From assembly GCA_000002445.1 (NCBI GenBank), contig CP000070.1, forward strand, positions 256,001 through 320,000: a stretch of DNA of 64,000 bases, read 5' to 3'. The stretch comes from Trypanosoma brucei (Eukaryota). The notes beneath the pieces were generated by a model. That model ran no database searches, was not told the origin of the DNA, and worked only from the letters and a program-made list of their open reading frames with translations. Each line of letters begins with the position of its first letter. Position 1 is the stretch's first letter. The position numbers and the translations under genes were made by a program. Below are positions 1,177 to 57,816 of this stretch, piece after piece.

Positions 1177-3513
1177 ATGTCTGACAGTGGTGACGAATAC
1201 GAAAGGAGGGAGGACATCCTTCTGCAGGATGATATTAACCTGGCGGGGGCCAATGTTAATGGAGTGGACACTGATCCGTGCGGTTATTACGCATCGCTTG
1301 GCGTGTCGCAGGACTCCTCGCAGGCAGCGATCCGCCGTGCGTTTCTCCAATTAAGTCAAATTTTTCACACAGATAAGCACGTTGGTGAGGACGAAGAAAT
1401 TCAGGCACTTATGAACGAGCGATTCCAGCAACTGATGGAGGCGTACTCTGTGCTTTCTGACGAAGGGAAGCGGGCTGCGTATGATGCAAGCGGCAAGTTG
1501 GGTCTTAACCGCTACTCGCTCATTCCCAAAGAGATCACACAGAGAGAAGATATTTTGCGTTACATGTCTACTCTGGAGAGGGAAGCAGAACTGTTGAAGC
1601 TATCGAAATTGCTCTCTGCTAGTTCTAGGACTACCGTCTCGTATTCTGTCGATCATCTCACAAATTCCATGTGGAAACTTGGAACTTCTGCAAATGATAC
1701 TTTGCAGCAGCAGAGTAATGGTGTTGATACTGAGGAGGCAGGTACTGACGAGGGGGAGACGGAGACACCTCCTAAAGGTGACATAGCGGATGCGGCAAAC
1801 GGGGCGGAAGGAAGCAGTGCGCAACCTGTTCCACTCAACACGAGTGTCGCCGTACGAGAAGTGCAGCTAGATGGAAAGAACTTACTTGTGTTAATTCCCG
1901 GAGATGAGGTGCAGCAGCAGTTGCGGCAGCAGTTACAGCATTCGACTGGTGGTGGCAGTGGAGGGTCAGCGGCTCCTCTCAGCCCTGAGCAGCGCTTTGG
2001 TGGGGTCCCACTTGCAGCGAAATTACTGCTTGGGTTGTTACCCCGAAAACTCCATTTCGAACACTCCATCCACCACTATGCATCGCCGTCATTTAGTGTG
2101 CGAACGAAAACGGAAGCCCAGCACGAGGGGATGCGATCGGTTTTGCGGTGTACAGCGATAGCATCCTATCAACCCAATCCAGTGACATTATATTCTATTT
2201 CGTGGCGCCTGTCTGTCGCGAGGTTGCACATCGCTTGTACTTGGGAGCGCATACTCAACAACTTGTGGAGACTTAAATCAAAACTGGTACTGTTCAACAC
2301 CCAGTCTCTACTTCCCATGTATGAGCTGTCTCTTAAACGGATGCTGGCTGCTGGGTTGGAGATCGAAAACACGTGGGTTATGTCAATGAGAAACAGGGGC
2401 TTGTTCAGAACTACGATAGGGCAATCTACGCCTGAAGGTGCGCAACGAGGTCTGCAGTTTCTTGTTGGTTATCGCAGTGCAAATGTTTCTCTTTTCAGCA
2501 CTGCGCCTGTGGTGTGGGGGGGAGGGGAACCAGGCTGTGGGGGTGTTTCGAGGGGCGTGTTGGAGCATTCAGTGAGCGTAGATGCGTTGCGGGGCAGAGC
2601 GCACGTTGGCTTCTCCTCATGGTATACTATTTCGAAGTATAATCGGATTGGGGTCGGTTTTTCCACGGCCCTTCCATGTCCTCGTGGTCTTTCGAGGTAC
2701 GTCTCGCCATTTGTGGACCACCCCGAATACCTTTCTATCAATGAAATGTCATTTCTCTTAGGGAGGGGTGACCATCTTATTCGGATCCCTGTCGTCGTTT
2801 TCCACTCACCGAAAGTTCAAAGCGCCTTACTGTGGTTGACAGCTCCGGTGTTACTTTATCGTATTGGGCGGCTTGTTATGCGACCATATCAATCGGCTCG
2901 CATGGCGGCTCTGTATCGTCAAAATCGTTTGGACCATCGAACAGAGATGGATGTGGCCCGTGTGCGTGCCACTCACGAACAAAAGGCATTGCAGAGCAGC
3001 TCCCTCCGCAGTCGTATGGCGGAGGAGCAAATCGGTGGACTTGTTATAATCAATGCGAGATATGGCGTGCTTCAGCCGCGCTACCCGGAGTCGTTGGTTT
3101 TGCCACCGAAACAACCGAATGCCGCGGGTAACCGTTCTGAAGTTAGTGGAAGGCAACGGCAGACGTGGTGGAGGTTTTGGCGGGCGGGGAGGGGGACCCC
3201 CACGCCTTCGGAGTCCGTGACCGTGAACGGTAAAAAAAAAGACGAAGGTGAAGAAACCGAAGGCGATTCATCATCCTCAGTACTTGTGTTGGACGTAACG
3301 GTGCCGCTGCAAAACTTTGTTCGAGACTCTCAGCTTGTACTTCCAGAGGGATCCAAGAGTAAATTGGTTGGTTTCACCGACCCTGATCCCTTTACACGGG
3401 AAAGAAAGCAACTTAAAATTGTTTATAGGTTCCAGCGTCGGCGACATGTGGTTATTTTAGATGATGAAGATATCGTTCGACTGCCACAAAGGGAACATTT
3501 GGTTGAGTCGTAG
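1177..3513 (+). CDS. J-domain (DnaJ-like) protein. The N-terminal J domain carries HTD instead of the canonical HPD tripeptide.
   Basis: 778-aa ORF. Residues ~35-100 read YYASLGVSQDSSQAAIRRAFLQLSQIFHTDKH...ERFQQLMEAYSVLSDEGKRAAYD, which matches the J-domain consensus (YYxxLGV...AYRKLAxKYHPDKN...F..I.EAYEVLSD..KR..YD). The sequence has FHTDKH where HPDKN is expected. Confidence 0.6.
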   Translation: MSDSGDEYERREDILLQDDINLAGANVNGVDTDPCGYYASLGVSQDSSQAAIRRAFLQLSQIFHTDKHVGEDEEIQALMNERFQQLMEAYSVLSDEGKRAAYDASGKLGLNRYSLIPKEITQREDILRYMSTLEREAELLKLSKLLSASSRTTVSYSVDHLTNSMWKLGTSANDTLQQQSNGVDTEEAGTDEGETETPPKGDIADAANGAEGSSAQPVPLNTSVAVREVQLDGKNLLVLIPGDEVQQQLRQQLQHSTGGGSGGSAAPLSPEQRFGGVPLAAKLLLGLLPRKLHFEHSIHHYASPSFSVRTKTEAQHEGMRSVLRCTAIASYQPNPVTLYSISWRLSVARLHIACTWERILNNLWRLKSKLVLFNTQSLLPMYELSLKRMLAAGLEIENTWVMSMRNRGLFRTTIGQSTPEGAQRGLQFLVGYRSANVSLFSTAPVVWGGGEPGCGGVSRGVLEHSVSVDALRGRAHVGFSSWYTISKYNRIGVGFSTALPCPRGLSRYVSPFVDHPEYLSINEMSFLLGRGDHLIRIPVVVFHSPKVQSALLWLTAPVLLYRIGRLVMRPYQSARMAALYRQNRLDHRTEMDVARVRATHEQKALQSSSLRSRMAEEQIGGLVIINARYGVLQPRYPESLVLPPKQPNAAGNRSEVSGRQRQTWWRFWRAGRGTPTPSESVTVNGKKKDEGEETEGDSSSSVLVLDVTVPLQNFVRDSQLVLPEGSKSKLVGFTDPDPFTRERKQLKIVYRFQRRRHVVILDDEDIVRLPQREHLVES

Positions 3514-3945
3514 TTAGCCACCCTGCGTTCATACAGCGCTAATGTGTGTTTGTGGGGGAGGGGCTGAGGAAGGCGAAATATGTTTCAAGTCCGCCCCGGC
3601 TGGGTGTCATTATGCAGCAGCGGGAGACTCGGGAATATCTGTGGTGCCACCTCCCTCTGCGGAGGTGTGGTGTGGGGGAGGCTTAAACTGGTGTTTAGAC
3701 TGATTTGAACGAACGGTAGCGAATGCGGATGGTATGATTCGCTGTGTAATTATAATCTTTAAGGGTTTCCTTTTTATTCATTCGTGCCCTTTCACCGGCA
3801 ACGTAGGCATGCCGCCGGTGCCGTTTAAGCATACTTCATCATTTTCTCATTATAAAAGGTATTTGCCTTCCTTTGTGGTATCAACCCCTTGCCTGAACTA
3901 TTCAACCTGTCGTGTTGTTTCTTATAGGGGGCCGCTACAGGTTAC

Positions 3946-6027
3946 ATGACACGTTGCCGGCTCGTTGGTGCTTCTTCTGGTGGGAAATATATTTCTACTA
4001 CCAATGCAAAGACTCGCCCCGTGATGGGCTGTTTGAGGTTTGCCTCAAGATTGTCGGCCCTCGGATCGACTCAACAACCGAAGTTCTTCGCCCTGCCGCT
4101 GCTTGCAACAACACGTGGTTTCGGTCACCTTGTGCGCGAGGTAGATATGCGGGGCTTTCGAGGTGATTTTGGACAACTGCGACACAAGAACTTGGCGAGT
4201 ACACAACGGTATGTCACTGATGCCCTTGGAGCCAAGAAAAACGTAATATTTTGTGGTGCCTATCACACGGGGAAGTTAACAATTCTGAAGGCAATAGGTG
4301 AAGCGTGTGAGGCCCGGGGGAAGAAGGTCGCATACGTGTCGTGTAACCCTCAGCGCGCGTCTCGTTTCGGTGGTTTTTTGTTGTATCACTTTGTTGGGCT
4401 GCGTTACCTGTTCCGTAACGAGATTCCCTCACGAGACCAGTTGGATGGGGCGTTGGAAAGACATGCACGGCTTTGTGAATCTACATACGCTGGATGCGTA
4501 CCAAGTTTGAAGTCAGTTGATGTGTTGATATTCGATGCTGTGGATCAACTTGAACCCACTATTCTGGCGTCTATGGATGCGGTGTGTCGCCGTTTGCGAG
4601 GGAAACCGAATGACGCCTTTGGGGGCCTGCGTGTCTTTGCTGCAGCTGATTTCTGGCGTCTCCCGGTTCATCCCAGCAGCGACACTGGTGGCTATATCTT
4701 CCAACTAGATAATTGGGGGGAGCTGTTTCCAAAGCAGCATCTGCTGAAGAAAATCTATGGGCAGACAAAAGCACTTACCACACTTGTGAACAAGGCATAT
4801 TACGGCCAACTCTCTGCTGAGGATATTGAAGAACTTGAGGCGCGGTCATCGGCGGGAAGGACGGAAAGTGGAGCTGCCTGTGGTGGCTCAAAAAAGGAGG
4901 CTTCCGAGACAAGTGGAAGTTTTAGTGTCAGTGACGATGGCAGTCGCCAGGTGGAGGTTGAAGAGGAAGGAGCAGGCTCTGGTTTGTTGCCACCGCAGCG
5001 ACTAATTTCCAACGCTGAAGCCATTATCAAATTTACCTCACGTTTCCCGAAACAGCCGTCGATCCGTGTACTGCCACCGCGTTTTCGAACGCTGAAACGA
5101 ACGGAAATAGGGAATTACATTGTAAACATGATGGTTCAGTCCTCCACGCTGCATTCTTTTGGCCTCGTTGACTCACTGAACCTTGACATCGGTGCGTCCG
5201 TGCATCTCCTTTTTGATGGCACCGCAGACTTTGGTGTAACGGCAGGAACGGTTGGTGAGGTGTTGCAGGTAAAAGAACACGCGCTTGTTGTCCACTTTCC
5301 TTCCGTACATCGCACTGTGGATGTTCCTCGCATGCGAATTAGCGTTTACCACCCCTTCTACCCCGAGGTGCGGTATGAAGTTCAACAGTTTCCCCTATAT
5401 CCACGCCATTGTATCTCACCTATTAACATGTTGACGTATCATCACGCATACCAAGTGCACATTGACTGTCATCAACTTGCAGACACAAACGATCTGGGGA
5501 ATATACTTGCACGCATGCGTACCTTCGATGACTTTACAATCGAGCGCGTCCATGACTTTGCCCATTTGGATGGTATGGTACACGAGCCAACTCGAATTTA
5601 TTATCAGCGCATCGACAACCAACCCCTTTCTTCAGCGGCAGAGCAATGGTGCCGAAACTGCAAGTCTTATGTTTCAACCTCCGACTTCTACACCCACTGG
5701 GATAAGTGTGTTCGTCAGGTTCGTTGGTGTACCGTATGCAACACGCGTATCCCACTGGAACGGCTTGGCCCCCACCAGGAGAAGCATCAAATTGTGTTAT
5801 GCCTGGACTGCGGTCGTGCGGTTGAGTGGCGTCGGTGGGAGGGCCACCGGCTCACGTGTTCCGCAATGATGCGCGAGGTTTCACCTGAAAATGAATTCCT
5901 TCCGCTACGTACCCGCCAGCTGGCGTTAGAGATGGGTCTCGATAAACGTGATTTACATACAATGAAGGGCTTTAACCGCGGCATGCTCCCAAAGTCGCGA
6001 AAACAGTGCAACGGTGGAGAAGCTTGA
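3946..6027 (+). CDS. PIF1-family-like P-loop NTPase with degenerate catalytic motifs and a C-terminal Cys/His-rich zinc-finger-like region. The N-terminus resembles a mitochondrial presequence. Possibly the divergent PIF8-type protein.
   Basis: 693-aa ORF. The motif I-like [21 protein letters not shown] matches PIF1 vFftGsAGTGKS. The motif II-like [10 protein letters not shown] has DA where PIF1 has [19 protein letters not shown] matches PIF1 motif III FGGiqlilcGDFlQLPPV, with GDF replaced by ADF. The C-terminus reads CRNCKSY...HWDKC...CTVCNTR...HQEKH...CLDCGR. The N-terminus is R/S-rich ([14 protein letters not shown]). Confidence 0.5.
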
Positions 6028-9230: not shown

Positions 9231-11843
9231 ATGCACTGTTGTAAGGTTTTTTCGTTTCGCCTCACGGCAGGCCTTCTGCAGCGGCTGCCTATGCCGATGC
9301 CTCCGCCGCGACCAGGAGTAAGCGTCAACATGCAGCATGCGGTTGAAATAGAGGCGAAACGGCGGGTGGAGCTTGACGAGGCCACGCGCGCCCGGTACGT
9401 CGTTGTGAAGGAAGAAACTCGTGCTTCGGGGGACCGTGTCATTGGCATAGACCTCGGTACTACGAACAGCTGTATTTCATATATCGACAAGAAAACGAAC
9501 AGGCCAAAGATAATTCCATCTCCAACGGGGTCGTGGGTTTTTCCCACCGCAATTACGTTTGATAAAAGTCACAAGGTTCGCTTATATGGTGAAGAGGCCC
9601 GGGCCTGCGTACGGACGAGTGCGAGCGCGACGTTGTGCAGTGGAAAGCGCCTTATTGGCAGGGGTGTTGGTGAGTTGGGCCGCGTACAGTCCCAGCTCCA
9701 TAAGACAAATATGGTTACGCTTAACGAACGGGGAGAGGTGGCAGTAGAAATTATGGGTCGCACCTATACAGTAACCCATATCATAGCCATGTTCCTGCGC
9801 TATCTGAAAAAGGAGGCAGAAAAATTTCTCAAGGAACCGGTGAATGCCGTTGTAGTGAGTGTTCCTGCATTCTTCACCCCACAACAGAAGGTAGCGACGG
9901 AGGATGCTGCACTTGCCGCGGGTTTTGATGTCCTGGAGGTAATTGACGAGCCATCCGCCGCTTGTTTGGCTCATACTGTTTTGCAGCCTAGTAATGCCTC
10001 ATCAAGGGAACATCTATCGGGATCTAAGCGTATTGTACGTTCGCTGGTGTTTGATTTGGGCGGTGGCACACTGGACTGTGCTGTGATGGAAAATGATCGG
10101 CGACGGGGTACTTTTACACTTGTTGCGACACATGGTGACCCATTGCTTGGCGGCAATGATTGGGATGCTGTATTGTCTCAGCATTTTTCTGACCAATTTG
10201 AGCGTAAGTGGCGAGTACCTCTGGAGGACGCAGAAGGAAACGTGGGGCAAGGTGTAGCTACGTACCGCCAGCTCCTTCTTGAGGCTGAGAAGGCAAAGAT
10301 TCATTTTACGCACTCAACGGAGCCATATTATGGCTACAATCGTGCATTTCACTTTTCAGAGAAGCTTCGTGACATTGTTCCACTCGAGGCCACGCTCACG
10401 CTTGAGGAATACATTGAACTAACTCGGCCATTGAGGGTTCGCTGCGTGGAATGCCTCAACAAGCTTTTCGACCACACAAGCATACGTCCAGCAGACATTG
10501 ACAATGTACTACTTGTGGGGGCCATGACACGTGACCCCCCAATACGCCATCTTCTGACAGAGTACTTTGGTCGACATGTGGAATCTGAAGCCTCGTGTCC
10601 TGCCGACTACGCTGTAGCCATCGGTGCCGCCGTCCGCGGTGCCATGCTTCAGGGTGGATTTGATGACTTATTGTCGAACACACGATTTGTCACGGGGACC
10701 GCACAAGCCTTGAAGCAGGGTGGTTTCCTGCGTCGCTGCTGCAATCGCATTGGATCCTTAGTCAGTAGCAGCGTTAATCCAAATGCCATTGGCCAGCGCT
10801 GGCGCGGGCGCGCAAAAGGGCTCTCTGATGAAGAAATAGCTAACTATGCAAAGGAGCTTGTTGAGTTTGAGGCAGCGTGCGACCGCCGGCTGCTGCTTGA
10901 AAGAGCAGAGAACGACGCAAACTTCGTGATGCGGCGTGTAACAGCCGATTCGAGCAAGCGGCAAGGGATGCAGGAAAAACGTGTGCGGCAGCTAAGTGAA
11001 CAACTGAAGTTCTGGCAGTATATGGTGCACAACTTTCATGATCACGAAGACGAGTTACTACGAACGGTACGAGAATTGGAGCAAGCACTGGATGAATTGG
11101 AAGGGCTGGCAGAGGATAACACGTCGGGCCTCACAACCGCAGGGACAGTTGACTTCTCCTCAGTGACCCCTGTGAACCATTGCGAGGAAGAAGAGCGAGA
11201 CTGCAGCAGTGTTTCTGCAGCGTCAAGATCGGCACAGCTTAGGACGGCACATGGGGACGGAAAGCTGAAGGAGCGCACACAGGACGAGGAGGGGGAGAAA
11301 CCGAAAGGTCGTAAAATCATGAGGCGAGCTGTACCGCTGCCAAGGGCAAGTGCAGAAGCGCAGGAATTGGTGGAGGCGGGGCATCCCGCACTGCGAGGTG
11401 CCGATGTTTCCATGACAGAGTCCACGAGAAGTGCATTTTTCGAGGCACAGGTGGAGGAACGGGCATGGCGGGAGCCACCAACACCGCCTGGTGAGCATGG
11501 CTCATGGCAGGAGGTGAAGCGTGCGGTTGACGCTGGTGAGCCCGTTGGGAGCCCAATTGGTCTTCAGGAGTTACAGCGCCCAATGACACATGAAGAGATG
11601 CTACAGGTACTTAACAATATCGCACCCATTGATGATCCGGTGAGCGAGGAGCACGCCAGGAAGAGGGACCACTCCATTGATATGCGAACCATGACTATTG
11701 TTGAGGGTGCCGTAGATATGGTCGCGCTGCAGGAACTACTTGAGGAAGAAGCCAAACGGGCGGAGGAGCTTCAGCGTGCTCAGAAGAAGGGTGAGAAGCA
11801 ACTTGTAGCCGATTCATCAGCCAAACTGTTCGCGATGGACTAG
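9231..11843 (+). CDS. Divergent HSP70-family protein. The nucleotide-binding domain is intact, the substrate-binding beta-domain is shortened or divergent, and there is a long charged C-terminal tail.
   Basis: 870-aa ORF. VIGIDLGTTNSCISY matches the HSP70 signature IGIDLGTTNSCV. VFDLGGGTLDCAVM matches DLGGGTFD. LLVGAMTRDPPIRHLLTEYFG matches LVGGSTRIP.v. LSDEEIANYAKELVEFEA resembles the HSP70 lid segment LSKEEIErMvkEAEkf. There is an N-terminal extension before the NBD. Confidence 0.65.
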   Translation: MHCCKVFSFRLTAGLLQRLPMPMPPPRPGVSVNMQHAVEIEAKRRVELDEATRARYVVVKEETRASGDRVIGIDLGTTNSCISYIDKKTNRPKIIPSPTGSWVFPTAITFDKSHKVRLYGEEARACVRTSASATLCSGKRLIGRGVGELGRVQSQLHKTNMVTLNERGEVAVEIMGRTYTVTHIIAMFLRYLKKEAEKFLKEPVNAVVVSVPAFFTPQQKVATEDAALAAGFDVLEVIDEPSAACLAHTVLQPSNASSREHLSGSKRIVRSLVFDLGGGTLDCAVMENDRRRGTFTLVATHGDPLLGGNDWDAVLSQHFSDQFERKWRVPLEDAEGNVGQGVATYRQLLLEAEKAKIHFTHSTEPYYGYNRAFHFSEKLRDIVPLEATLTLEEYIELTRPLRVRCVECLNKLFDHTSIRPADIDNVLLVGAMTRDPPIRHLLTEYFGRHVESEASCPADYAVAIGAAVRGAMLQGGFDDLLSNTRFVTGTAQALKQGGFLRRCCNRIGSLVSSSVNPNAIGQRWRGRAKGLSDEEIANYAKELVEFEAACDRRLLLERAENDANFVMRRVTADSSKRQGMQEKRVRQLSEQLKFWQYMVHNFHDHEDELLRTVRELEQALDELEGLAEDNTSGLTTAGTVDFSSVTPVNHCEEEERDCSSVSAASRSAQLRTAHGDGKLKERTQDEEGEKPKGRKIMRRAVPLPRASAEAQELVEAGHPALRGADVSMTESTRSAFFEAQVEERAWREPPTPPGEHGSWQEVKRAVDAGEPVGSPIGLQELQRPMTHEEMLQVLNNIAPIDDPVSEEHARKRDHSIDMRTMTIVEGAVDMVALQELLEEEAKRAEELQRAQKKGEKQLVADSSAKLFAMD

Positions 11844-12227: not shown

Positions 12228-12677
12228 ATGTCCGGTGAGAAGACGCACACCCTCAAGCAGGTGCAGACCTTCGGCAAGAAGAAAACGGCCATTGCGGTCG
12301 CCACGGTGACGAAGGCCCCGCAGTGTAACATTCGCATCAATGGTGTCCCCATATCTCAGATCCTTCCTGAGACGCTCCGTGCGAAGATCATGGAAGCTGT
12401 CAAGGTAGTGGGCGCTCGGTACTTTTCTCGCCTGCGCGTTGATGTGAGGGTTCGTGGCTCCGGTCAGGTCGCTCAGGCATACGCCGTCCGCCAGGCCATC
12501 GCGAAGGGTATCATCGCATATTACCAAAAGTACCACAATGAGATTGAGAAGGCTGCACTGAAAGACAAGTACTTGGAGTATGACAAGTTCCTCCTCATTG
12601 CGGATCCTCGCCGCTGCGAACCCAAAAAATGGGGCCGTCACTCTGCCCGTACGCGCTTCACAAAGTCGTACCGTTAA
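12228..12677 (+). CDS. RPS16: 40S ribosomal protein S16 (uS9), copy 1
   Basis: 149 aa. MSGEKTHTLKQVQTFGKKKTAIAVATV...RVDVRVRGSGQVAQAYAVRQAIAKGIIAYYQKYH...GRHSARTRFTKSYR carries the uS9/S16 family signature, including the C-terminal ...ARxRxQKSYR. Confidence 0.9.
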   Translation: MSGEKTHTLKQVQTFGKKKTAIAVATVTKAPQCNIRINGVPISQILPETLRAKIMEAVKVVGARYFSRLRVDVRVRGSGQVAQAYAVRQAIAKGIIAYYQKYHNEIEKAALKDKYLEYDKFLLIADPRRCEPKKWGRHSARTRFTKSYR

Positions 12678-12900
12678 TCGCCTGCTGTATGACAGCGTAT
12701 TGATGAGGTGGCGGCACGATATACACCCGGGTTGCGGAGTTGCCTTTATCAGTTGCATGTTTTTAATTTCTCTTTTAACTGTTTGTTTCACTATTAATTT
12801 CTTATCTGCTTTCACACCCTTCTGTAATGGGGTGGTCGTCGCTGCCGTGTGTTGCCACTTTCCTACACTGTCATTGGAAGTTGCGGTGATTTGCTTTCAC

Positions 12901-12940
12901 CCCTATTTGTTTGTTTTATTTTCAACTTTTTTGTTGGTTG
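12901..12940 (+). promoter_or_regulatory. Polypyrimidine tract / SL acceptor region for the second S16 copy
   Basis: ccctatttgtttgttttattttcaacttttttgttggttg, then ctAGcacccaaATG. Confidence 0.4.
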
Positions 12941-12951
12941 CTAGCACCCAA

Positions 12952-13401
12952 ATGTCCGGTGAGAAGACGCACACCCTCAAGCAGGTGCAGACCTTCGGCA
13001 AGAAGAAAACGGCCATTGCGGTCGCCACGGTGACGAAGGCCCCGCAGTGTAACATTCGCATCAATGGTGTCCCCATATCTCAGATCCTTCCTGAGACGCT
13101 CCGTGCGAAGATCATGGAAGCTGTCAAGGTAGTGGGCGCTCGGTACTTTTCTCGCCTGCGCGTTGATGTGAGGGTTCGTGGCTCCGGTCAGGTCGCTCAG
13201 GCATACGCCGTCCGCCAGGCCATCGCGAAGGGTATCATCGCATATTACCAAAAGTACCACAATGAGATTGAGAAGGCTGCACTGAAAGACAAGTACTTGG
13301 AGTATGACAAGTTCCTCCTCATTGCGGATCCTCGCCGCTGCGAACCCAAAAAATGGGGCCGTCACTCTGCCCGTACGCGCTTCACGAAGTCGTACCGTTA
13401 A
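12952..13401 (+). CDS. RPS16: 40S ribosomal protein S16 (uS9), copy 2 (tandem duplicate)
   Basis: Identical 149-aa product beginning at the internal ATG at 12952. The CDS is nearly identical at the nucleotide level to copy 1 (one synonymous A/G difference seen near the 3' end). The 5' flank differs from copy 1, and the 3' flanks match for only ~12 nt after the stop. The upstream extension of the ORF-track entry 12580..13401 is read-through of the intergenic spacer. Confidence 0.85.
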   Translation: MSGEKTHTLKQVQTFGKKKTAIAVATVTKAPQCNIRINGVPISQILPETLRAKIMEAVKVVGARYFSRLRVDVRVRGSGQVAQAYAVRQAIAKGIIAYYQKYHNEIEKAALKDKYLEYDKFLLIADPRRCEPKKWGRHSARTRFTKSYR

Positions 13402-16233: not shown

Positions 16234-18921
16234 TTGATGGCATTGGCTCAGTCATGTCGTCACTTTGCTGCGACGACGTACCGACAGTCCAAAATTACAG
16301 ATCGCTTCCAGCTGTTAATAACTAAAAAGGAAATTGAATGTGACTACGTTGCGGTGGACGCCACTGCCCTCGTCGCAACGGGGTTACGTCTCGCAAAGAA
16401 CGTTACAACTGAGCAGCGTCGCCATAAGGAAGTGGCGCGTCATGTAGTACAGTCAATACAACAGTTGTTGAAGAAGGTGCGTTGCAAGAAGTCTCTTCTT
16501 ATAGCAATGGACGGAGCTGAGAATCTGCTCAAGGCGGATCGTACACGGGGTAGCAGTTTAACCCGAAAGGTGGAAAGTCGTCTGATGAGACTACCGGGAA
16601 CTCCACTTATGCAGGCAGTGGAGGAACGTATCGTTCGTATGATGCCAGAGCGGCAGATATTACCCGGTGAAGTGGTGTTTGCCGGCACCTGTGTTCAAGG
16701 GTGTGTCGAGCAGAAGATGTCCGCTTGGGCACTTGATCTGGCGTCCCGAGACACCTTTAACGGCAGCAGCGACTCACTGAATTTGATTGGGGCCTCTGAG
16801 TTGTACCTTAATGTGTTGGCGCTGTCGCCCTTCTATAACGTATCGAGTGTGGTGCAAAATAACGCAGATTTGCGACATATACGACTGCAGGATATTTTGG
16901 AGTGGCTAGAGCTAGATAAGAAGGCGAAGGAAGGGGAGAGTGTCACAATAGCCAAGATGAGAACGGATATTTTATTCCTCTTCATTATCGCTAACGGCGC
17001 CTCGGCAACTGAGCTGAATCCCATTCCTGCTGTTGGTTTCCATGAAATTGTTGATAGGTACATGAAGGTTCTCGCAGAAAACGGTGCTACGCCCCCTTCT
17101 CAAAGCGCGACCGCGAGCGCCCCAACTGCTTCAGCCAACGTCCCGGCCGCCCCAGCATTTCTTTTTGAGGATAGTCCGGGCAACACACTCCAACTGAATC
17201 TTCGCATGCTCTGTCGCATCATGCAGTTAGTGGCGCGTAAGGAGGCGCCAGCCCGTGTGGATGGTCTGTCAGAAGCCTACTTGGAGCACGCCTTACAAAC
17301 GCATGCAATGTTGTGTACTGGACAGGCACCCCAATGCACCTACTTGCCAGCAGCGGGTACAGGACAACTAGGCTCGACGGCGCCTAGCGCCGTGCAGCTC
17401 GCAGGTCATCTTGCTGCATTATGCGCATCCACAGCACAACGCAACGCACGGTGTACTTCTCTGCAGCCCTCGCTGGTAACACCAGAAAAGGGATCGTGTG
17501 AGGAAGACAGTTCGGCAACAAAGCTGCCGCCGACACCCCCAACTAGCGCGGTCGCACCAGTTGAAGACAAGCCGCTGACAGCAGCTGAATACACCATTCT
17601 CTGTCAGTCGCTTCCCGCAGCTGTGGAAGGATTGATTCATCAGTACGTAGGCGTAGCGCCTAAGCCGGATGTTGGGAAGATGATTACAACGGCGACCACG
17701 GAGGAAGCCTACCGCCTTGTTCGGGAAGTGCTTTCTTATGCGAACCCTCTTCGACCGCATAAGTGCTTATGCCTTTCCCCATCTTATTGCTGGCTCCAGA
17801 ATGAAAAGACGCAACTGTGGCGCTTCGAATATGTCGATATTGGTGTCAAAAGTCATGAACTGGGGACACGTCGGCAACTCAATGCTATGAAGGGTGTAAC
17901 GCTTGAAGTGAACATGTCCCGTGATGGTCCTTCGCATTTTGATCCACTGAGTGGGACGTGGGAGCCAATTGCCAATTTCCCGTGCGGAGCGGAGTGCGAA
18001 TATGACAAACATACTGAAGAATGCACATCTTCTCCTTCAGCTCCACAAACTGCAAAAGAGGTTGAAGGAGGACCAGTTAAGGCATCTTTAAAATTGCTGA
18101 CATGGAATGTCATGTTTGATCGTTACAGCGGCAAACCAACTCCTTTAGGTATGCCTGGTATAGATTGGTGCTCCCCCAAGAGGTATCCCGTCATTGCCAA
18201 GATCATAGAGGAGGAGGATGCGGATGTTGTTGGCATGCAAGAGGTGGAGCCTGTATTTTGGGAGTTCCTTTCCAAGCGGCCACTTATACGCCAAAGGTAC
18301 TACTTTTCGTGCGGTCATATGAGTCCAGCTATTGCCCCGTGGGGGGTGCTGATGTTGATACACCGTCGGCGTCTTCCAGTACAGAGCATCAACTATCTTA
18401 ACGTCCCTGCGTGGACTAATCATGTTTCTCTCATGCCGGTTGTGGGTCTGAAGATGGTGCACGGTACTGTACACATAGCTGCCGCACACTTACTCGCGCC
18501 ATACACGAAGTCCCACGAGAACGCTCGTACTTCCCAGGATACCGCGTTACGCCATCACATGACGAAGACGTTGGGTGGCGGGGATGTGGTAACTATGGGA
18601 GATTTCAACGACTGGCCTACAAATGAATTTATTATGCCACATGAATCACAGTACGTGGACTGTTGGCCCGTTTTGCACCCCAACAACCCTGGAAAGACTA
18701 TGGATGAAACAAACACCTTTTGTAAACTGAAAGTGGAGGAAATGTTTTTTGGCCGTTCCGACAAGGTGTTTCTGCGAAGCAGGCGGCTTGTGCCAGTCGA
18801 AGCTCATCTCGTCGGAACACGGAGTGTAAACGATGAGAACAACAACGCCGACGCACCCGCATATTTGTTCCCATCCGATCACTACGGCGTAAGTATAACG
18901 TTTTCATTGAAGTTACCGTAA
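16234..18921 (+). CDS. KREX1: Endonuclease/exonuclease/phosphatase (EEP)-domain nuclease with an N-terminal XRN-like 5'-3' exonuclease-type motif region. The size and architecture match the editosome U-specific exoribonuclease KREX1 (TbMP100).
   Basis: 895 aa (~100 kDa). The C-terminal EEP hallmarks are LKLLTWNVMFD, DADVVGMQEV, VTMGDFNDWP and PSDHYGVSITF. The N-terminus reads LLIAMDGAENLLKADRTRG...LPGTPLM...PGEVVF...ALDLASRD, resembling the XRN motifs AiDGVAPRAKMNQQRsRR / ITPGTpFM / PGEGEHKI / GlDADLI. The N-terminus is Arg-rich and presequence-like. The KREX1 identity is from memory of the published TbMP100 architecture. Confidence 0.55.
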   Translation: MMALAQSCRHFAATTYRQSKITDRFQLLITKKEIECDYVAVDATALVATGLRLAKNVTTEQRRHKEVARHVVQSIQQLLKKVRCKKSLLIAMDGAENLLKADRTRGSSLTRKVESRLMRLPGTPLMQAVEERIVRMMPERQILPGEVVFAGTCVQGCVEQKMSAWALDLASRDTFNGSSDSLNLIGASELYLNVLALSPFYNVSSVVQNNADLRHIRLQDILEWLELDKKAKEGESVTIAKMRTDILFLFIIANGASATELNPIPAVGFHEIVDRYMKVLAENGATPPSQSATASAPTASANVPAAPAFLFEDSPGNTLQLNLRMLCRIMQLVARKEAPARVDGLSEAYLEHALQTHAMLCTGQAPQCTYLPAAGTGQLGSTAPSAVQLAGHLAALCASTAQRNARCTSLQPSLVTPEKGSCEEDSSATKLPPTPPTSAVAPVEDKPLTAAEYTILCQSLPAAVEGLIHQYVGVAPKPDVGKMITTATTEEAYRLVREVLSYANPLRPHKCLCLSPSYCWLQNEKTQLWRFEYVDIGVKSHELGTRRQLNAMKGVTLEVNMSRDGPSHFDPLSGTWEPIANFPCGAECEYDKHTEECTSSPSAPQTAKEVEGGPVKASLKLLTWNVMFDRYSGKPTPLGMPGIDWCSPKRYPVIAKIIEEEDADVVGMQEVEPVFWEFLSKRPLIRQRYYFSCGHMSPAIAPWGVLMLIHRRRLPVQSINYLNVPAWTNHVSLMPVVGLKMVHGTVHIAAAHLLAPYTKSHENARTSQDTALRHHMTKTLGGGDVVTMGDFNDWPTNEFIMPHESQYVDCWPVLHPNNPGKTMDETNTFCKLKVEEMFFGRSDKVFLRSRRLVPVEAHLVGTRSVNDENNNADAPAYLFPSDHYGVSITFSLKLP

Positions 18922-24500: not shown

Positions 24501-26373
24501 CAACAACAACGACGTCAACTCTCTTCAACCTTTATTTAAGTTCCTGTGGGCCGAGCTTAGTCCATCGTATTCTGTGTCTCCACTAAGCGCGTTTTATTGC
24601 TCCTCTTACGACAAACAGCGGCACATGATCTCCGCCCTCAACGCATTCAGAAGTTCGAGGAAGATGGCACGATATGCGATTAACAGCTTTTACGTCGGCC
24701 GTCACTCAAAGTCGTCCCCAAGTGACACACGACATGTCCTGACCCAACCGGCAATAAGGAAGCCACTGTGCATGTGTAGGCTCTGCAATCCGTTTACTAA
24801 GCAAACAGTTTATCCGAAATCCCCTGTGCTCACTTTGAAGGATGCATTGTATCGTCGTGTAACGTCCGCTGCAAGCGAGGAAGAAACCGAGGGATTCATT
24901 TCCGACCGTGGTGGTTTGTTCCGGTCGTGGCGGTTTTCTGTGCCCTTGACACATCTGATGGTCCGTCATGAGAAAACGGAGGAGCTGCAGAGGGCTCTGC
25001 AACTTTCTCCTGTCACCGAAGCGCATGTGGAGGTTCCACTACTGGACGGCGAGCGCTTTCTCTATGATTACGCGGGAGACGTTGTAGCTCGGGGCGTTGC
25101 ACTTTTGCAACGCCAGGGGTTGGTGGGAAACTGTTCAGCGAAGCTGCTGTCATGGGTCTGCTTACTTGGCCGTATGGCGTTGCATCCTTCAACAGCCTTC
25201 GCTGACGTCCGAAACAGTGATCAAGCACTGTATGTGCAGTCCCATCAGAAAAATGAGCAAGTCGCTTCCAACTTCCTGAGTTCAGTTGTTTCCGTAACAC
25301 CTAACGACGCGTTGGCGTACGCTAGGAAGCTTATCGCGAACCGGCTTAATACTACGGGAACCAGGAAAGGTCGGGGTGAAACCAATGTGTTGGTTCCCCC
25401 GGAGACGACGGTGGAGACACTGCGCAAACTGACGCTTGATCCCCCTGAAGTTCCAGAGTGCGCCATATGTCTCGATACTATGCTCCACCCAACCTTACTA
25501 AGCTGCTTCCATCTATTTTGTAAGGAGTGTCTGTTTGCGACGATACAGGTGGCGAGACCAACACTTTCAAACGAAACTACCGCCCGCTGCCCTCATTGTA
25601 GAAACCCCAAAAGCATGAGGGAAAAAATGATGGTAATTCAGGTGGAAAATACGCAAGTAAGCACGCTGGGTGCACTCCAAGATGAGGGCATGGCGCCCCC
25701 CAACGGTGAAAACGTTTCTCACGAAGAACTGAAGCGACGGGTTGATGCTGTTGGGCGCGGTAGTCGAATTCCAAGGCTGATTCAACTGCTTGAAGACATA
25801 TGGGATGAGGCCCCAGACGACAACGTGTTGGTGTTCTCAAAGGTGCCAGCGATCCTGCAAATGGGAGAGGCAGCCCTAAAGGAGGCTGGCTACCAAAACG
25901 TACACGTGATCGATAATCACGTAACTTTGGTTCAGCGGAAGAAAATTTTCGCCCAGCTCCACGCCAATGCAGCGACCACCGCCTCAGCAACAGGGTCGGC
26001 CTCAGGAAGCACGCCTTCGGGTAACAACCGAGGACACGTGCTGTTTCTCTCTTCCCGGGTTGCATGCTCAGGGCTCAATTTGGTCTTTGCGAACCGCTTG
26101 ATTTTTATGGAACCCAACCTCAACCCAGCCCAGCACCAGCAGGCAGTTGGTCGCATTGACCGTTGCGGACAGTTGAAGAGAACATATGTGTATGTAATGT
26201 ATGCACCTCGCACTATTGAGGAGAGGATCATGAATCGGACCTCAGCTCTGCTGCAGGAGGCAAGTCAAGGTACTTTTCCTGACGTAGCAACAGGTCGAGG
26301 GGCTCCGGCAGGAAATACCTCTTCAATGGGACAAAGCGAGTTAATTACTTTACTTCAAGCGCAACAAGCGTGA
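21535..26373 (+). CDS. SNF2-family DNA-dependent ATPase with a C3HC4 RING finger inserted between the helicase lobes (RAD5/RAD16/HLTF-like architecture)
   Basis: 1612 aa. Motif I is FLCDEMGLGKTLVVL. Motif II is ERIILDESQKCSK. Motif III is RWVVSGTPINN. The RING is CAICLDTMLHPTLLSCFHLFCKECL...CPHCR. The helicase-C motifs are VLFLSSRVACSGLNLVFANRLIFMEPNLNPAQHQQAVGRIDRCGQ. There is an N-terminal basic NLS-like stretch (MPPRKRSKRPRD). Confidence 0.85.
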   Translation: MPPRKRSKRPRDQEQSAEAETATTGIESLVGREGDPITHDFIDECNGDESDSDNQILAASFKKRTKRRAEKMVGNGNDTVLTDGDDDECIAEQEDKVTKALQARLRCGMQRFATSATNQGGLVKPSGPPSSVAAAAQRSTTTKRDNLTNSRRQEIFVEHVKHFMRYTVIADKARKLVSLEERPKEDPDVGNDRVELLRIHVSLPCVWRYILHEWERVEEASKKSSSLAASRDASVSRLVSLFMKCLNSLDGIHALLFIACAACRALDLTGGVTSVLLHLLLETGRVEEDRLLKSDSGELVYKAIEEIDKEMHSRFGGSDCCYFQTHSYLLLLIWYTQRDVSDNGGPLKMSHQVVLSQAFVKATSPYQTARTRRGSKAAASVAPSEESGKRKPRGRRCAGSSEDGAALSGFDRHATLVTEVQEHETRWAEDSSKFLFSLYALQNASGSASYGMKKLALREVMGAVFLFHRVLSESGVNDFLLESKESRIRELHEWSLSKGFVTPPLTHGGESSNNGTTVNSFASTDVGEDGLNVMSMAGRTYRECTDVERSFPRVANARAMLQHVTQIAAANYRGNTRAVGEGFPHEYIRARLHPHQVESLAYMLERETRGLAQYVELRGFFEATSGLPSEVADRSAGRGSREFSLFYSSMSSEWFIVRSDSLSARFARRALHCGFLCDEMGLGKTLVVLSLCATAKKRAIELEETEVPTVTTLGTVKGSNVGAVNKAFAESDAGTAGAGEDEPIYLWRHIRVRKTGAPWSDMLEVLYGSLPQPVYLPTPKPLPKTTLVVVPLSLLIQWVSEIDRFYPLARYILFHGPSRQRYTYEDFCSADFVITTYETVGAHLRVETDAAFRLLTMTLPYMEHKDASLAQWDTFCRGCNERRARAASASQGVNDCDGSADVFDSILSLFESARRQVVLEAEGAPPGPTLDFVSQWDKTFREFLRSDVLYLTDFVFERIILDESQKCSKTSRLQYLQARRRWVVSGTPINNNDVNSLQPLFKFLWAELSPSYSVSPLSAFYCSSYDKQRHMISALNAFRSSRKMARYAINSFYVGRHSKSSPSDTRHVLTQPAIRKPLCMCRLCNPFTKQTVYPKSPVLTLKDALYRRVTSAASEEETEGFISDRGGLFRSWRFSVPLTHLMVRHEKTEELQRALQLSPVTEAHVEVPLLDGERFLYDYAGDVVARGVALLQRQGLVGNCSAKLLSWVCLLGRMALHPSTAFADVRNSDQALYVQSHQKNEQVASNFLSSVVSVTPNDALAYARKLIANRLNTTGTRKGRGETNVLVPPETTVETLRKLTLDPPEVPECAICLDTMLHPTLLSCFHLFCKECLFATIQVARPTLSNETTARCPHCRNPKSMREKMMVIQVENTQVSTLGALQDEGMAPPNGENVSHEELKRRVDAVGRGSRIPRLIQLLEDIWDEAPDDNVLVFSKVPAILQMGEAALKEAGYQNVHVIDNHVTLVQRKKIFAQLHANAATTASATGSASGSTPSGNNRGHVLFLSSRVACSGLNLVFANRLIFMEPNLNPAQHQQAVGRIDRCGQLKRTYVYVMYAPRTIEERIMNRTSALLQEASQGTFPDVATGRGAPAGNTSSMGQSELITLLQAQQA

Positions 26374-26849
26374 TGCTGGCATTTTTTTTGCTGTTTCTGA
26401 ATTGACCTCGGGATCGCCGACGATCACACGACCCTCCACCCTCCACCCTCCAAGCCCAAACCCATTTTTTGAGTCGTTTCTTTTTTTTTTTTTTAAATAA
26501 CTATTTTATTTCCTCTCCCTTATATTTGTGACGCCCAGGATATTTTGTTTCTGTTTGGAGACGATTGTTGTGAGTTCTAGAACTGCACCCTGAAAAAGGA
26601 TTAAAAAAAAAGGGGGCGATGGGATGTTTGCCATTTTACGTTTTTTTGTTTTTCTTTTTATGTCGTGCATTCTTTTAACGTTTGTTGCCGTCTCCATTTT
26701 GTCTTTGTTTATTATTATTATTTTTTTTTAGGGTTGATTCAGGGGTGGTGGGTGAGGAGGCCCTTGGCGGGGAATTTATCTCTTTCTCTTTTCTTCTGTT
26801 GACTTTGTTTTTCCTTTTATCCACAGGGTAGCGATGAGGCAAGGATGTC

Positions 26850-26854
<5 letters not shown>

Positions 26855-26882
<28 letters not shown>
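26855..26882. repeat. (AT)n microsatellite
   Basis: Direct read: atatatatatatatatatatatatatat. Confidence 0.9.
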
Positions 26883-26890
<8 letters not shown>

Positions 26891-29260
26891 GAAGGAATGT
26901 ACAAACATGAAACAAATAAGCGGATATTTAAATATATAAGTATATATGTACTTGTGTAATGTGAGTGAGTAAATAAATAAGTGAATGAGTCTGCGTGTGT
27001 TTCGAATATTGACGAAGTGAATCTATGAACTAAGTTATGTATTCTTTTCCCCCCTTTCCAGTATCCCTTGTATTTTCGGGCGCTGATGTTCCTTTTGTTC
27101 TGTTCTGTTGTTGTTCTTTTCTAGAGACTTCGTTCCAAAGTACGAAAATGCCTCGTTGGTCTCTTTTCTTGTTCTTATTCTGTCTGTGAGATGCATTGCT
27201 TCATCTTAAATTTTCTGGCTTCACCTTTCGTTTTTTTTTATTGTTTTCGCCTTACTACCGCTTCCGTGACCATCGAGAGGCGCACGTTGCTTTTGTTATG
27301 GTGCCTACGTATGCGTTGCCCATATTCCTTCACATTACATTACATTACATCACTGTTGTGAGCTCAATAACGTACTCAAGGAGACGGCACCACAACGAAC
27401 GAGAGCGAAATGAATAAATGGAGGACAGGTGGCGAAAAAGAAAAAGTAAGAAAAAAGAGGAAAATAATAAAAGAGAAAGAAATAGAGAAGTAGAGAAAAC
27501 AATTACAATAATAAAGCAAAGCATATATCATGACGGTAACTACAATGTCTCGTGCTTTCCCCCACACATCAACGGCCCCCAAAATCTCGTCTTCCAATCA
27601 GTTCTTTCTTTCCTTTTTTGTTTTGTTGTTGTCGGCATTGGCTTTGCTTTATCAACCTATATCTATATCTATCCATATTTATATATTTTTATGATTTGAA
27701 GTGACGCAACCTGCCGGTTCGCTTTATGTTAACTGAGTGGGTGGGAACAAAAGAAATTGTAAATAGCTAATTTTGTTTTCCTTTAATTGGGACAATTTTA
27801 GCGAGTACATGAGATCTTTTCCCCTTCCGTTTTTTTGCCTCTATTGTTTATGACACAAACACAAACACACACACATATGCTCAAAAAGGGGGGAAAAAGA
27901 GAGGAATACTTGTGTATGCACAAAGAAGAAAGAAAAAAAAAGAAGAATGAAATATAGAAGGGAGCTATGGGAAGAGCAATTTTCATTGTGGTTATTTCTA
28001 CTACTATTATGAGGAACGGTAACATTGTTATTATTTAGCTTTAGTGTGCGACTATGTTACCCCATTTTGTGTTTGTTTGTTTAATTGTTATGTTCGTTCT
28101 TATGGATATGTGTAACAAACACATCATCTTTATCTTCTATGCGCCGGGCAGGAATGATCTTGTGAATGGCGTCTTTTGCTTTTTTTTGTATGTGATGGAA
28201 AGAGAGAGTTCAAGAAGGGGGAAGGGGAGTAAAAAAAAATAAATAAAAGAAAACATCATGCTTGCATGCATAAGCATTAATGTATGTCTTTGTGCGTAGT
28301 ACATCGTTGCTCCAGAACACAGAAATGCAATATCTCACCAAAGTAAGGAGAGAGGAGACATAATGCGTGATACTATTTTTTTCTTTTGAAAAAGATGAAA
28401 AAGAGATAAAGCAACAGGGGATGAAAGGTTTAAAATTATGCTTTGCTAATCGGTTACTATTATCACTACGATTATCATTACAATTACTGTTGTCATTTTT
28501 TTTTTTTAAGTTTTAATAAAAAGAAAAGCAACAATACCATCATCGTTGCGTCGTAGAGGATACACACTTCTTTGCTACATCCCCTGTTATTTTTCCATTT
28601 TAAAACAAAATTTGTGGTGCTGACTAATGGAAGTTAAGTGGAGCGCTCATGCACCAACGAAGAAGGACGAGGAGAGGAGGGAAATGCGGAAAGGAAAAGG
28701 AAAAAAGAAAGATCGAAACCTTCAAAGAGAGTCTAAAGGGGTGGCGTGCCGCTTACATAAAAGTAACTCCATACAAGACGTACACAAATATACATATACC
28801 TGTTCATCCTTTGATTTTCCCTTTCTTCCTCTTCTTTTTCATTTCGGCCTTGAAGCGACATTAATACTTAAAGATCCCTTGTTTTACATCTCACAGTTTA
28901 AGATTTGTGAAGAGTGTGCATGTTTTGCTCGGCAATAAATGGGAAAATAAAGACGTGAAATATATGTATGTATGTATATATATGTATTTCGTCCTCTCTC
29001 ACACCCTCGTGTGTTCCACACGCTCAAGGGCGAACTTTTGTTGATTCTTTTTATTATTTTTCTCTTGAATGCTCTTTTACTTCCTCATAAGTTTTTATTA
29101 GGAAGTTTAATTGTTTATTACCCTTTAAAAAAAAATACGTATTTTAATTTGTTTTTGCTGTTTTTTGCGAAAAAAAAATTCACAAAAATTTCGTAAAATA
29201 AGTTGTCTTTTTCCTCCTTTTCTTTTCTTTTTTCTTTTAAATTCGTTCTTCCCGCTGTTT

Positions 29261-29282
29261 ATATATATATATATATATATAT
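29261..29282. repeat. (AT)n microsatellite
   Basis: Direct read. Confidence 0.9.
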
Positions 29283-29384
29283 GTGATGTGCGTGTATTGA
29301 GAAAAGTGGGTTAAGTAGGGAGGTGGAAAAGGGTTCGTTAATCAAATTAGGTTAAACCTGAGAAAATAAAAAGAACGAAAATTT

Positions 29385-44548: not shown

Positions 44549-44619
44549 GCGCAGTTGGTCTAGTGGTAGAATTCTCGCCTGCCACGCGGGAGGCCCGGGT
44601 TCGATTCCCGGACTGCGCA
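44549..44619 (+). tRNA. tRNA-Gly (anticodon GCC)
   Basis: GCGCAGTTGGTCTAGTGGTAGAATTCTCGCCTGCCACGCGGGAGGCCCGGGTTCGATTCCCGGACTGCGCA. The acceptor stem GCGCAGT pairs with ACTGCGC, followed by discriminator A. The A box is TGGTCTAGTGG. The anticodon loop is CTGCCAC (GCC). The B box is GGTTCGATTCC. Nearly identical to the eukaryotic tRNA-Gly-GCC body. Confidence 0.9.
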
Positions 44620-44621
44620 CG

Positions 44622-55609: not shown

Positions 55610-56318
55610 TCCTCCTTTCAGCGTTTTTTTCATCGTTTACAGTATTGTCGTCATTTTTATTTCTTTACTGTTGTAACTTCCGTTATCGTGTTGTTGTTTT
55701 AATCCTTTCTTGACGCTGTTTTATTTTTTGCCTCCTTAATTTGCCTGCAAATTGACTTCTTTGGCCCCATTCTGATGCAGAACTTACGCGCATGTATGCG
55801 AATGTGGCCCGACAGTGAAGTGGCGGGAGCAGTCGCTCTGGTGTGTTGTTTTACACGCGTTCGTGTGCATTTATTTTCTTTGATCTTTTGTTTAACTTTA
55901 TCCCCTCTTTTTTTTTGTATTGTCCATCCCGCCTACCAGCGGCAATCGCGTATCATGTGTTGGAGGTTGAGGGGGTGATTGTGGAGGGGGTAAAATAATT
56001 TAAATGAAAAACAGACATAATAGAAACGAAGCTTTTAAAAAAAATTATGTGTCCAATGAAGGAAGAAGGGGAAGTGGATGTGTTAATGTTATTTTGTGCG
56101 TTGAAGTTTTTAGTCGTCCATCAAGATTGAGTTTTTCTTTACGTTTTTTTCCCTTGCTGGTGGATTCCTCCGATCCACCCCCCTCCTATTTAACCCTTAA
56201 CTTGTGAAGTGTGGGAATTGGTGTAATAAATGCAGAGGGGAGGCGGACGGAGAGTGAAGGAGGGGAGGGGAGAAAAAAGGATATCAGGGGAGGTGCTTTT
56301 AATAAAAAAAAAAGTATG

Positions 56319-56319
56319 C

Positions 56320-56371
<52 letters not shown>

Positions 56372-56378
56372 CTGTGTT
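56319..56378. repeat. Compound (TA)n-(TG)n microsatellite
   Basis: tatatatatatatatatatatatgtgtgtgtgtgtgtatgtgtatgtgtatgtctgtg. Confidence 0.9.
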
Positions 56379-57660: not shown

Positions 57661-57676
57661 ATATATATATATATAT
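57661..57676. repeat. (AT)n microsatellite
   Basis: Direct read. Confidence 0.85.
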
Positions 57677-57816
57677 TTCCCCAAATACTAATCGTAGTAA
57701 GTCAAGGAGAGCACAAGAAGAAATAATAACGAGCGCAAACTCGTTCCCTTATATACAAGTTATTGTTTCCCTGCGGCAGTAAACTACCCGGTTGTTCATA
57801 TTAGCGGGAAGGAAAG

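Follow-up and report, generated by a model that had tools for sequence, protein, structure and literature searches.

We analysed a 64,000-nucleotide stretch of Trypanosoma brucei DNA (contig CP000070.1, positions 256,001 to 320,000 of the forward strand; hereafter the window, numbered from its first letter) and found that the gene at 3946-6027 is PIF8 itself, a gene that is already known and experimentally characterised and is thus not new. It is very probable, in our judgement, that this nuclear open reading frame (ORF) encodes a mitochondrion-imported protein in which a dead PIF1 helicase core is joined to TRAF-type zinc fingers and a C-terminal tail, and that TbPIF8 most likely serves as a non-motor, DNA-associated scaffold.

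The window gene is PIF8, an essential kinetoplast protein

The product of the window ORF is identical to the T. brucei brucei TREU927 protein XP_845724.1 / UniProt Q57VU6 (100% identity, 100% coverage), whose database name is 'ATP-dependent DNA helicase-like PIF8', and a Leishmania orthologue bears the annotation '(TbPIF8)'. The initial annotation of this DNA, made from the letters alone, had read the protein as a PIF1 paralogue without catalytic activity, a reading compatible with T. brucei PIF8, and the residue-for-residue identity to Q57VU6 supports it. PIF8 was reportedly characterised by Wang, Englund and Jensen in 2012. The window gene does not differ from TbPIF8 at any of its 693 residues, and the gene ID of PIF8 is Tb927.7.1000 (PMC10719067, PMC6529878), which places the window on T. 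brucei chromosome 7.

The secondary literature counts six PIF1-like proteins in the mitochondrion, and among these PIF8 is described as the most divergent. Its published function is in the organisation and segregation of the kinetoplast DNA (kDNA) network, for both of which it is required. The protein is located mainly at the face of the kinetoplast that points away from the basal body, and its depletion by RNA interference (RNAi) causes moderate kDNA loss, a disorganised network and ~50% fewer nicked/gapped minicircle intermediates (PMC10719067). PIF8 is essential (PMC12539117, PMC6254582), is involved in kDNA segregation (PMC6254582), serves as the TrypTag reference marker for the kinetoplast (PMC6529878) and was recovered in a KP37 immunoprecipitation (bioRxiv 10.1101/2024.04.22.590512). 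A review considers it likely to be without helicase activity (PMC10719067).

The N-terminal segment, described in the initial annotation as presequence-like, has a composition that agrees with this description: residues 1-62 of TbPIF8 include 0 acidic and 9 basic residues. This segment is disordered in the AlphaFold2 model, with a predicted local distance difference test score (pLDDT) of about 30. Its sequence is not conserved, and orthologues from outside Trypanosoma have a short basic N-terminus instead.

PIF8 is predicted to keep the complete PIF1 fold

Sequence profiles and structure models indicate that TbPIF8 keeps the complete 1A-2A-2B architecture of PIF1, including the SH3-like 2B domain. 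As a single sequence, TbPIF8 matched human PIF1 by phmmer over domain 1A only (aa 86-303, E 4.7e-7). We then drew on 24 aligned orthologues (from Trypanosoma, Leishmania, Phytomonas and Strigomonas, together with sequences clustering with Bodo saltans), whose profile matched PIF1 in the PDB with an E of 2.7e-18. Alignment to a canonical PIF1 (P0038, 445 aa) with hhalign placed aa 87-535 on residues 7-394 (probability 98.6%, E 5.9e-16). Finally, a full-length AlphaFold2 model of TbPIF8 (mean pLDDT 77; predicted template-modelling score, pTM, 0.76) was compared with the PDB by Foldseek, and the top 40 matches were all PIF1. Human PIF1 was matched with an E of 6.7e-21 and a target-normalised template-modelling score (TM) of 0.72 over ~490 columns, whereas RecD2 (E 3e-10, TM 0.35) and Dda (E 5e-6) were far weaker. 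The motifs from I to VI follow the PIF1 order and spacing, which the initial annotation had recognised for motifs I, II and III. The best fold matches are to PIF1; a best match to a non-PIF1 family such as RecD or AAA, which that annotation had named as fatal to its proposal, was not obtained.

Could the protein belong to another P-loop family (i.e., RecD, Dda, AAA+, IstB or the SRP GTPases) instead? Weak Pfam and PDB matches to MeaB, IstB, AAA_30, SRP54/FtsY and DnaA would favour such an assignment; however, these cover the P-loop only, are short and below thresholds (E ~0.002 or worse), and PIF1 is ahead by more than 10 orders of magnitude in profile searches. Only PIF1 matches all three core domains, and we regard assignment to another family as already refuted and exceedingly improbable. 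RecD2, Dda, the herpesvirus helicase and TraI, which appeared in the fold search merely as distant relatives within superfamily 1B (SF1B), were rejected, as were MeaB, IstB, SRP54, DnaA and FtsK, whose matches are generic to P-loops and were not taken as family assignments. Pfam searches with TbPIF8 alone gave sub-threshold noise (Sgf11, MeaB, NigD_N, IstB and OrsD).

The catalytic motifs of PIF8 are degenerate

The register of the motifs was agreed by three independent alignments (phmmer to human PIF1, the profile to the PDB and hhalign to P0038). Intact motifs that had merely been mis-registered, a possibility raised with the initial annotation, are thus not what underlies the divergence, and in the agreed register the motifs are degenerate. 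In Walker A (G104-AYHT-G109-K110-L111), the residue at position 111 is Leu in 22/24 orthologues and Met in 2/24, while G104, G109 and K110 are invariant and T108 is found in 23/24. In Walker B, D197 is invariant and is followed by Ala (16/24) or Ser (8/24), never Glu. Motif III (A232-A-A234-D235-F236) has Ala at position 234 in 24/24 and Asp (20/24) or Asn (4/24) at position 235. The three departures first read from the T. brucei letters (GKL for GK[ST], DA for DE and ADF for GDF) therefore extend to every aligned orthologue, as GK[L/M], D[A/S] and A-[D/N]-F, respectively.

The remaining motifs have diverged as well. Position 272 of motif IV is Gly in 17 orthologues, Val in 5, Tyr in 1 and Thr in 1, and never Arg, next to an invariant Q273. 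The HKSQG of motif V is gone from all 24, and an invariant QFP..PR..P stands in its place. At R523 of motif VI, Arg is present in only 13/24 (His in 5, Lys in 3 and Gln in 2). Judged by these alignments, PIF8 lacks the residues needed for ATP hydrolysis, with motifs I-V replaced and the motif VI Arg unconserved.

PIF8 might nonetheless be an active ATPase or helicase that relies on non-canonical residues; for example, Thr112, two residues beyond the Lys, or the Glu/Asp at position 200 (DALE) could stand in for the lost Ser/Thr and Glu. Position 112 is indeed Thr, Ser or Asn in 24/24 orthologues and position 200 is Glu or Asp in 17/24. However, position 200 is His in 7/24 and position 112 is Asn in 4/24, and because these candidate substitutes are not conserved, we consider residual catalysis very unlikely. 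The missing motif IV Arg and motif V, the unconserved motif VI Arg and the published judgement that helicase activity is unlikely (PMC10719067) also argue against it.

Despite this loss of motifs, the PIF1-family signature region between motifs II and III is retained (MDAVxRRLRGxPxxPFGGLRV, in which R215 and F225-G-G-L228 are invariant in orthologues), and the P-loop G104, G109 and K110 are invariant. This pattern points to a pseudo-enzyme under purifying selection and not to a decaying gene. The loss of nearly all catalytic motifs could also be expected of a pseudogene in decay, or of a relic of the PIF1 gene expansion that the cell can do without, but the frame of 693 codons is intact, more than 100 positions are invariant among kinetoplastids (with Bodo saltans and a prokinetoplastid counted in), and published RNAi experiments show that PIF8 is essential. 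We give decay or dispensability almost no credence and treat it as already refuted.

PIF8 carries predicted TRAF-type zinc fingers and a conserved tail at its C-terminus

The C-terminus, which had been noted as rich in CxxC and HxxxC, resolves into three regular C-x2-C-x11-H-x3-[C/H] fingers. All 12 predicted zinc ligands are conserved, each in 23-24/24 orthologues, and each finger is beta-beta-alpha in both structure models. When a profile of aa 556-693 was compared with PDB sequences, only TRAF6 (E 0.0076) and FLN29/TRAFD1 (E 0.16) were matched, with the ligands in register; zinc finger 2 aligns in register with a TRAF6 finger. Foldseek likewise gave TRAF6, Cep104, RNF125, FLN29 and TRAF4 as the best matches of the finger array, although these are weak (E at least 1e-3, TM <0.5). 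C2H2 DNA-binding fingers (CTCF, BCL11A and ZFAT) ranked behind the TRAF-type ones among the weak fold matches, and for this reason the fingers of PIF8 may still have a role in DNA binding.

We also ran an exhaustive hmmsearch with a PIF8 finger/tail profile against 1.84 billion representative proteins. This search returned 20 proteins at E <=1e-28, after which the next score drops sharply to 5e-15. With the exception of the weakest, these 20 align to the tail as well as to the fingers; fragments aside, they measure 590-840 aa and have the module at the C-terminus. Below the drop (E 5e-15 to 1e-7), nearly all listed matches cover the finger region only, and many are multi-finger arrays. All 10 of the multi-finger relatives that we checked match TRAF/XAF1/CEP104-type models, and 9 of the 10 pass the threshold of PF21366 (TRAFD1-XIAF1_ZnF); the finger profile also retrieves proteins that pass the Pfam zf-TRAF threshold. 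Since the nearest non-orthologous relatives of the fingers are TRAF/XAF1-type arrays, we classify the PIF8 fingers, on sequence grounds, as being of the TRAF / TRAFD1-XAF1 type.

Pfam finger models (PF02176, PF21366, PF23580 and PF21039) were also tested directly on PIF8 against their gathering scores. Among 16 members, sub-threshold matches in the finger region were to CEP104_ZnF (15/16), zf_UBZ (13/16) and Znf_XAF1_N (11/16). The best member matched CEP104_ZnF with an E of 1.1e-4, and the T. brucei fragment scored 16.2 bits (E 0.012) versus a cut-off of 27.4. PF21366 and PF02176 are not listed among the Pfam matches of the PIF8 finger region. Two divergent PIF8-type proteins (P0035 and P0051) have Thr in place of the second finger 2 Cys, which is C598 in TbPIF8 (PDTD and TDTN), while fingers 1 and 3 are intact; this suggests that zinc binding may not require finger 2 in every lineage.

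The finger region and the tail that follows it are the most conserved parts of PIF8, and the tail is the most conserved segment of all (mean majority fraction 0.82; 16/42 positions invariant). Among the listed matches in the 1.84 billion representatives, the tail is matched solely in PIF8-type proteins. It is modelled with low confidence in both structure models. High conservation together with low predicted order suggests that the tail is a motif that folds on a partner.

Early-branching relatives show graded loss of the motifs

Divergent PIF8-type proteins recovered by hmmsearch were aligned with the orthologues and with canonical PIF1, and they form a graded series. The protein of Apiculatamorpha spiralis (P0052), a member of Prokinetoplastina (PMC7859406), has SGKS in Walker A, DD in Walker B and GGDY in motif III. 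A second protein (P0053), from a metagenomic contig of 1.39 Mb (L002, ENA metagenome ctg580727) with kinetoplastid-like, same-strand gene packing, has SGKT, DD and LANF at the same places, a motif pattern that resembles the prokinetoplastid one. In P0042-P0051, Walker A is GK[R/L/F/V] (SKL in P0051), Walker B is D[S/A/G] (HG in P0048) and motif III is A-[D/N]-[F/Y]; P0050 is truncated and its Walker A region is missing, and the P-loop of P0051 is further degraded, to GPRCGSKL. The Bodo saltans type and the trypanosomatids have GK[L/M], D[A/S] and A-[D/N]-F. The motif IV Arg and the HKSQG of motif V are gone from every PIF8-type protein aligned, P0052 and P0053 included, whereas the fingers and tail are present in all PIF8-type proteins of the series.

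Because the proteins that keep GK[S/T] (and in P0052 also GGD) already have the fingers and the tail, the fusion appears to be older than part of the catalytic decay. The series thus suggests that fingers and tail were joined to the core before the Ser/Thr of Walker A and the Gly of motif III were lost. A fuller scenario, which we offer tentatively and would not yet favour, is that the origin of PIF8 lies at the base of Kinetoplastea, in a PIF1 helicase to which TRAF-type fingers and a PIF8-specific tail had been fused while Walker A and the motif III Gly were intact. Its fingers and tail would be the true working end of the protein and dock it on the kDNA disc, and the core would have lost catalysis stepwise while keeping its Lys-containing P-loop as a non-hydrolysing sensor of nucleotide or DNA; the Apiculatamorpha spiralis protein (GKS, DD, GGDY) and others like it would represent intermediates that have survived. 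The literature searched, which did not extend to the 2012 primary paper, gave no account of the finger type, the tail or prokinetoplastid intermediates, and it held nothing specific that links PIF8 to zinc fingers, Perkinsela or Bodo.

PIF8 as a proposed static scaffold, and a possible nucleotide-binding switch

We propose that PIF8 would act as a static, non-motor scaffold associated with DNA. In this role, the dead helicase core and/or the fingers may contact DNA or partners, and the fingers and tail together would form an interaction module that places PIF8 on the kDNA disc.

Several points weigh against this proposal. The scaffold mechanism is itself one that we infer, and the missing ATPase/helicase activity is, in the wording of the review, 'likely'. 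At the level of families, the TbPIF8 sequence has no match to the Pfam PIF1 family (PF05970) at E up to 1, although 16/24 PIF8 orthologues match it at E up to 0.01 (best 1.3e-8), and all PIF8 finger matches to named Pfam zinc-finger families are below gathering scores. Moreover, the P-loop glycines and K110 stay invariant, which a purely structural role leaves unexplained and which may reflect retained nucleotide binding.

Given the invariant P-loop lysine, PIF8 could still bind nucleotide without hydrolysing it. The P-loop would then work as a conformational switch, or as a site for a structural cofactor, through which the binding of DNA or partners is controlled. The near-invariance of the loop (even though the Ser/Thr and Glu are gone), its modelling with pLDDT >90 and the persistence of GK[S/T] in prokinetoplastid members are all consistent with such a switch. 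However, the motif IV Arg and the motif V/VI residues, which would line the ATP cleft from the 2A side, are lost in every PIF8-type sequence, and the loop of P0051 has degraded beyond the rest. On balance, we hold a nucleotide switch to be rather unlikely, and we retain the non-motor scaffold as our preferred account of PIF8.

Genomic context of PIF8 and other features of the window

The features of TbPIF8 and its neighbours are collected in Table 1. PIF8 lies in a run of unrelated + strand genes that is typical of a trypanosomatid polycistron. The OGFr_N match of one neighbour (to the N-terminal region of the opioid growth factor receptor) contains no single stretch that passes alone, and the SNF2/RING protein has an architecture that resembles a Rad5/Rad16-like one. 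Directly upstream of the PIF8 ATG are short polypyrimidine tracts and AG dinucleotides (at 3926 and 3939), which are compatible with a splice-acceptor site near the start codon. Scans with Rfam and for tRNAs and tandem repeats found no RNA gene or repeat in or adjoining PIF8. A 135-aa, TTG-initiated ORF (5462-5869, +) lies in another frame wholly within the PIF8 coding sequence and was treated as a mechanical by-product.

Gene neighbourhood is not conserved between the window and the two other contigs compared. On a Bodo saltans-type contig (L001), the PIF8-type gene has Mcp5_PH, JmjC, kelch and IP3/ryanodine-receptor-like neighbours, and on L002 its neighbours are importin-alpha-like and MRP-L46-like. 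The neighbourhood thus gives no functional clue, as is expected for kinetoplastid polycistrons.

Across the window (1-64000), all ORFs of at least 200 aa are on the + strand, bar two that lie within + strand ORFs. Of the 32 intervals of 2 kb, 30 have a positive GC skew, and values near zero are -0.017, -0.012 and +0.005. ORF orientation and GC skew fit one polycistronic unit that runs in a single direction. One tRNA-Gly (anticodon GCC; 44549-44620, +; Rfam 59.2 bits, also found by ARAGORN) sits within the same-strand protein-coding array. G+C content is ~0.40 at 26001-30000 and 56001-58000 versus ~0.50 elsewhere in the window; these stretches lie for the most part where one long ORF has ended and the next has yet to begin (26373 to 29385 and 55609 to 57817) and could be long untranslated or intergenic regions, or degenerate repeats. 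A short imperfect tandem repeat (period 30, 2.2 copies, 77% matches) is found at 62169-62233.

Table 1 Positions in the window of TbPIF8, its predicted domains and motifs, and neighbouring genes.
Feature	Position	Strand	Details
TbPIF8, complete coding sequence	3946..6027	+	693 aa + TGA stop, ATG start; ORF listing and database identity
N-terminal presequence-like segment, aa 1-60	3946..4125	+	Composition; M27 is a second possible start
PIF1-type RecA-like domain 1A, aa 84-305	4195..4860	+	phmmer, profile; pLDDT mostly >90
Degenerate Walker A / motif I, GAYHTGKL	4255..4278	+	Canonical GSAGTGKS; Mg-binding Ser/Thr replaced by Leu
Degenerate Walker B / motif II, DVLIFDA	4519..4539	+	Canonical IIDE; catalytic Glu replaced by Ala
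PIF1-family signature region, interval between motifs II and III	4567..4638	+	Aligns to DKLEFMAQNIRGPNSGPFGGLQLI of canonical PIF1
Degenerate motif III, AAADFWRLP	4639..4668	+	Canonical CGDFxQLP; GDF replaced by ADF
Degenerate motif IV, KKIYGQ	4747..4764	+	Canonical KKIYRQ; Arg lost
Variable Ser/Gly/Glu-rich disordered linker, aa 306-350	4861..4995	+	pLDDT <50 for 309-345; length variable, unconserved
PIF1 core domains 2A + 2B, aa 351-560	4996..5625	+	hhalign to aa 535, Foldseek
SH3-like 2B domain, aa 409-486	5170-5403	+	Beta-rich 418-486 modelled with high pLDDT
Motif V position	5386..5421	+	Canonical TIHKSQG absent
Motif VI position	5482..5520	+	Arg not conserved among orthologues
Predicted zinc finger 1, C2HC	5641..5718	+	C569-x2-C572-x11-H584-x3-C588; ligands 24/24
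Predicted zinc finger 2, C2H2	5719..5790	+	C595-x2-C598-x11-H610-x3-H614; ligands 23-24/24
Predicted zinc finger 3, C2HC	5791..5865	+	C619-x2-C622-x11-H634-x3-C638; ligands 24/24
Highly conserved C-terminal tail, aa 641-682 (42 residues)	5866..5991	+	Conservation, profile search
DNAJC11-like protein, immediate upstream neighbour	1177-3513	+	DnaJ + DnaJ-like_C11_C domains, E 1e-33
Protein with OGFr_N-like region, 317 aa	7265-8218	+	Short match, E 2e-11
Hsp70-family protein	9231-11843	+	
Ribosomal S9-family protein	12580-13401	+	
EEP-family protein	16234-18921	+	
SNF2/RING protein, 1612 aa	21535-26373	+	SNF2-related, RING-type and Helicase_C domains

PIF8 among PIF1 helicases and TRAF-type finger proteins

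PIF8 has the 1A-2A-2B architecture, the signature region and the motif order in common with canonical PIF1-family SF1B helicases (human PIF1, ScPif1 and the Bacteroides and Thermus Pif1 proteins). It differs from them in that the catalytic residues of motifs I-V are replaced and the motif VI Arg is unconserved, in the disordered linker within its core, and in its C-terminal finger array and tail, which canonical PIF1 lacks. With TRAF-type, TRAFD1-XAF1 and CEP104 arrays, PIF8 shares tandem fingers of C-x2-C-x11-H-x3-[C/H] spacing, which in PIF8 are modelled as beta-beta-alpha, and the match between them is reciprocal but weak in both sequence and fold. These known arrays serve in cytosolic or centrosomal signalling and are often ubiquitin-linked, whereas the PIF8 array is mitochondrial and fused to a dead helicase. 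TbPIF1, 2, 4, 5 and 7 belong to the same family and organelle as PIF8, and all act in kDNA maintenance; as published descriptions have it, TbPIF1 is found at antipodal sites, in contrast to PIF8 on the disc face distal to the basal body (PMC10719067).

PIF8 is one of three PIF1-like proteins that are essential for maintenance of the trypanosome mitochondrial genome, and our analysis leaves its gene identity and known role unchanged. What it adds is modest (i.e., the finger type, the PIF8-specific tail and the graded loss of motifs in early-branching kinetoplastids), and these additions are leads for kDNA specialists. Together, the TRAF/XAF1-type fingers, the tail as the most conserved segment and the invariant P-loop lysine make up a predicted domain map that indicates where PIF8 could be cut experimentally.

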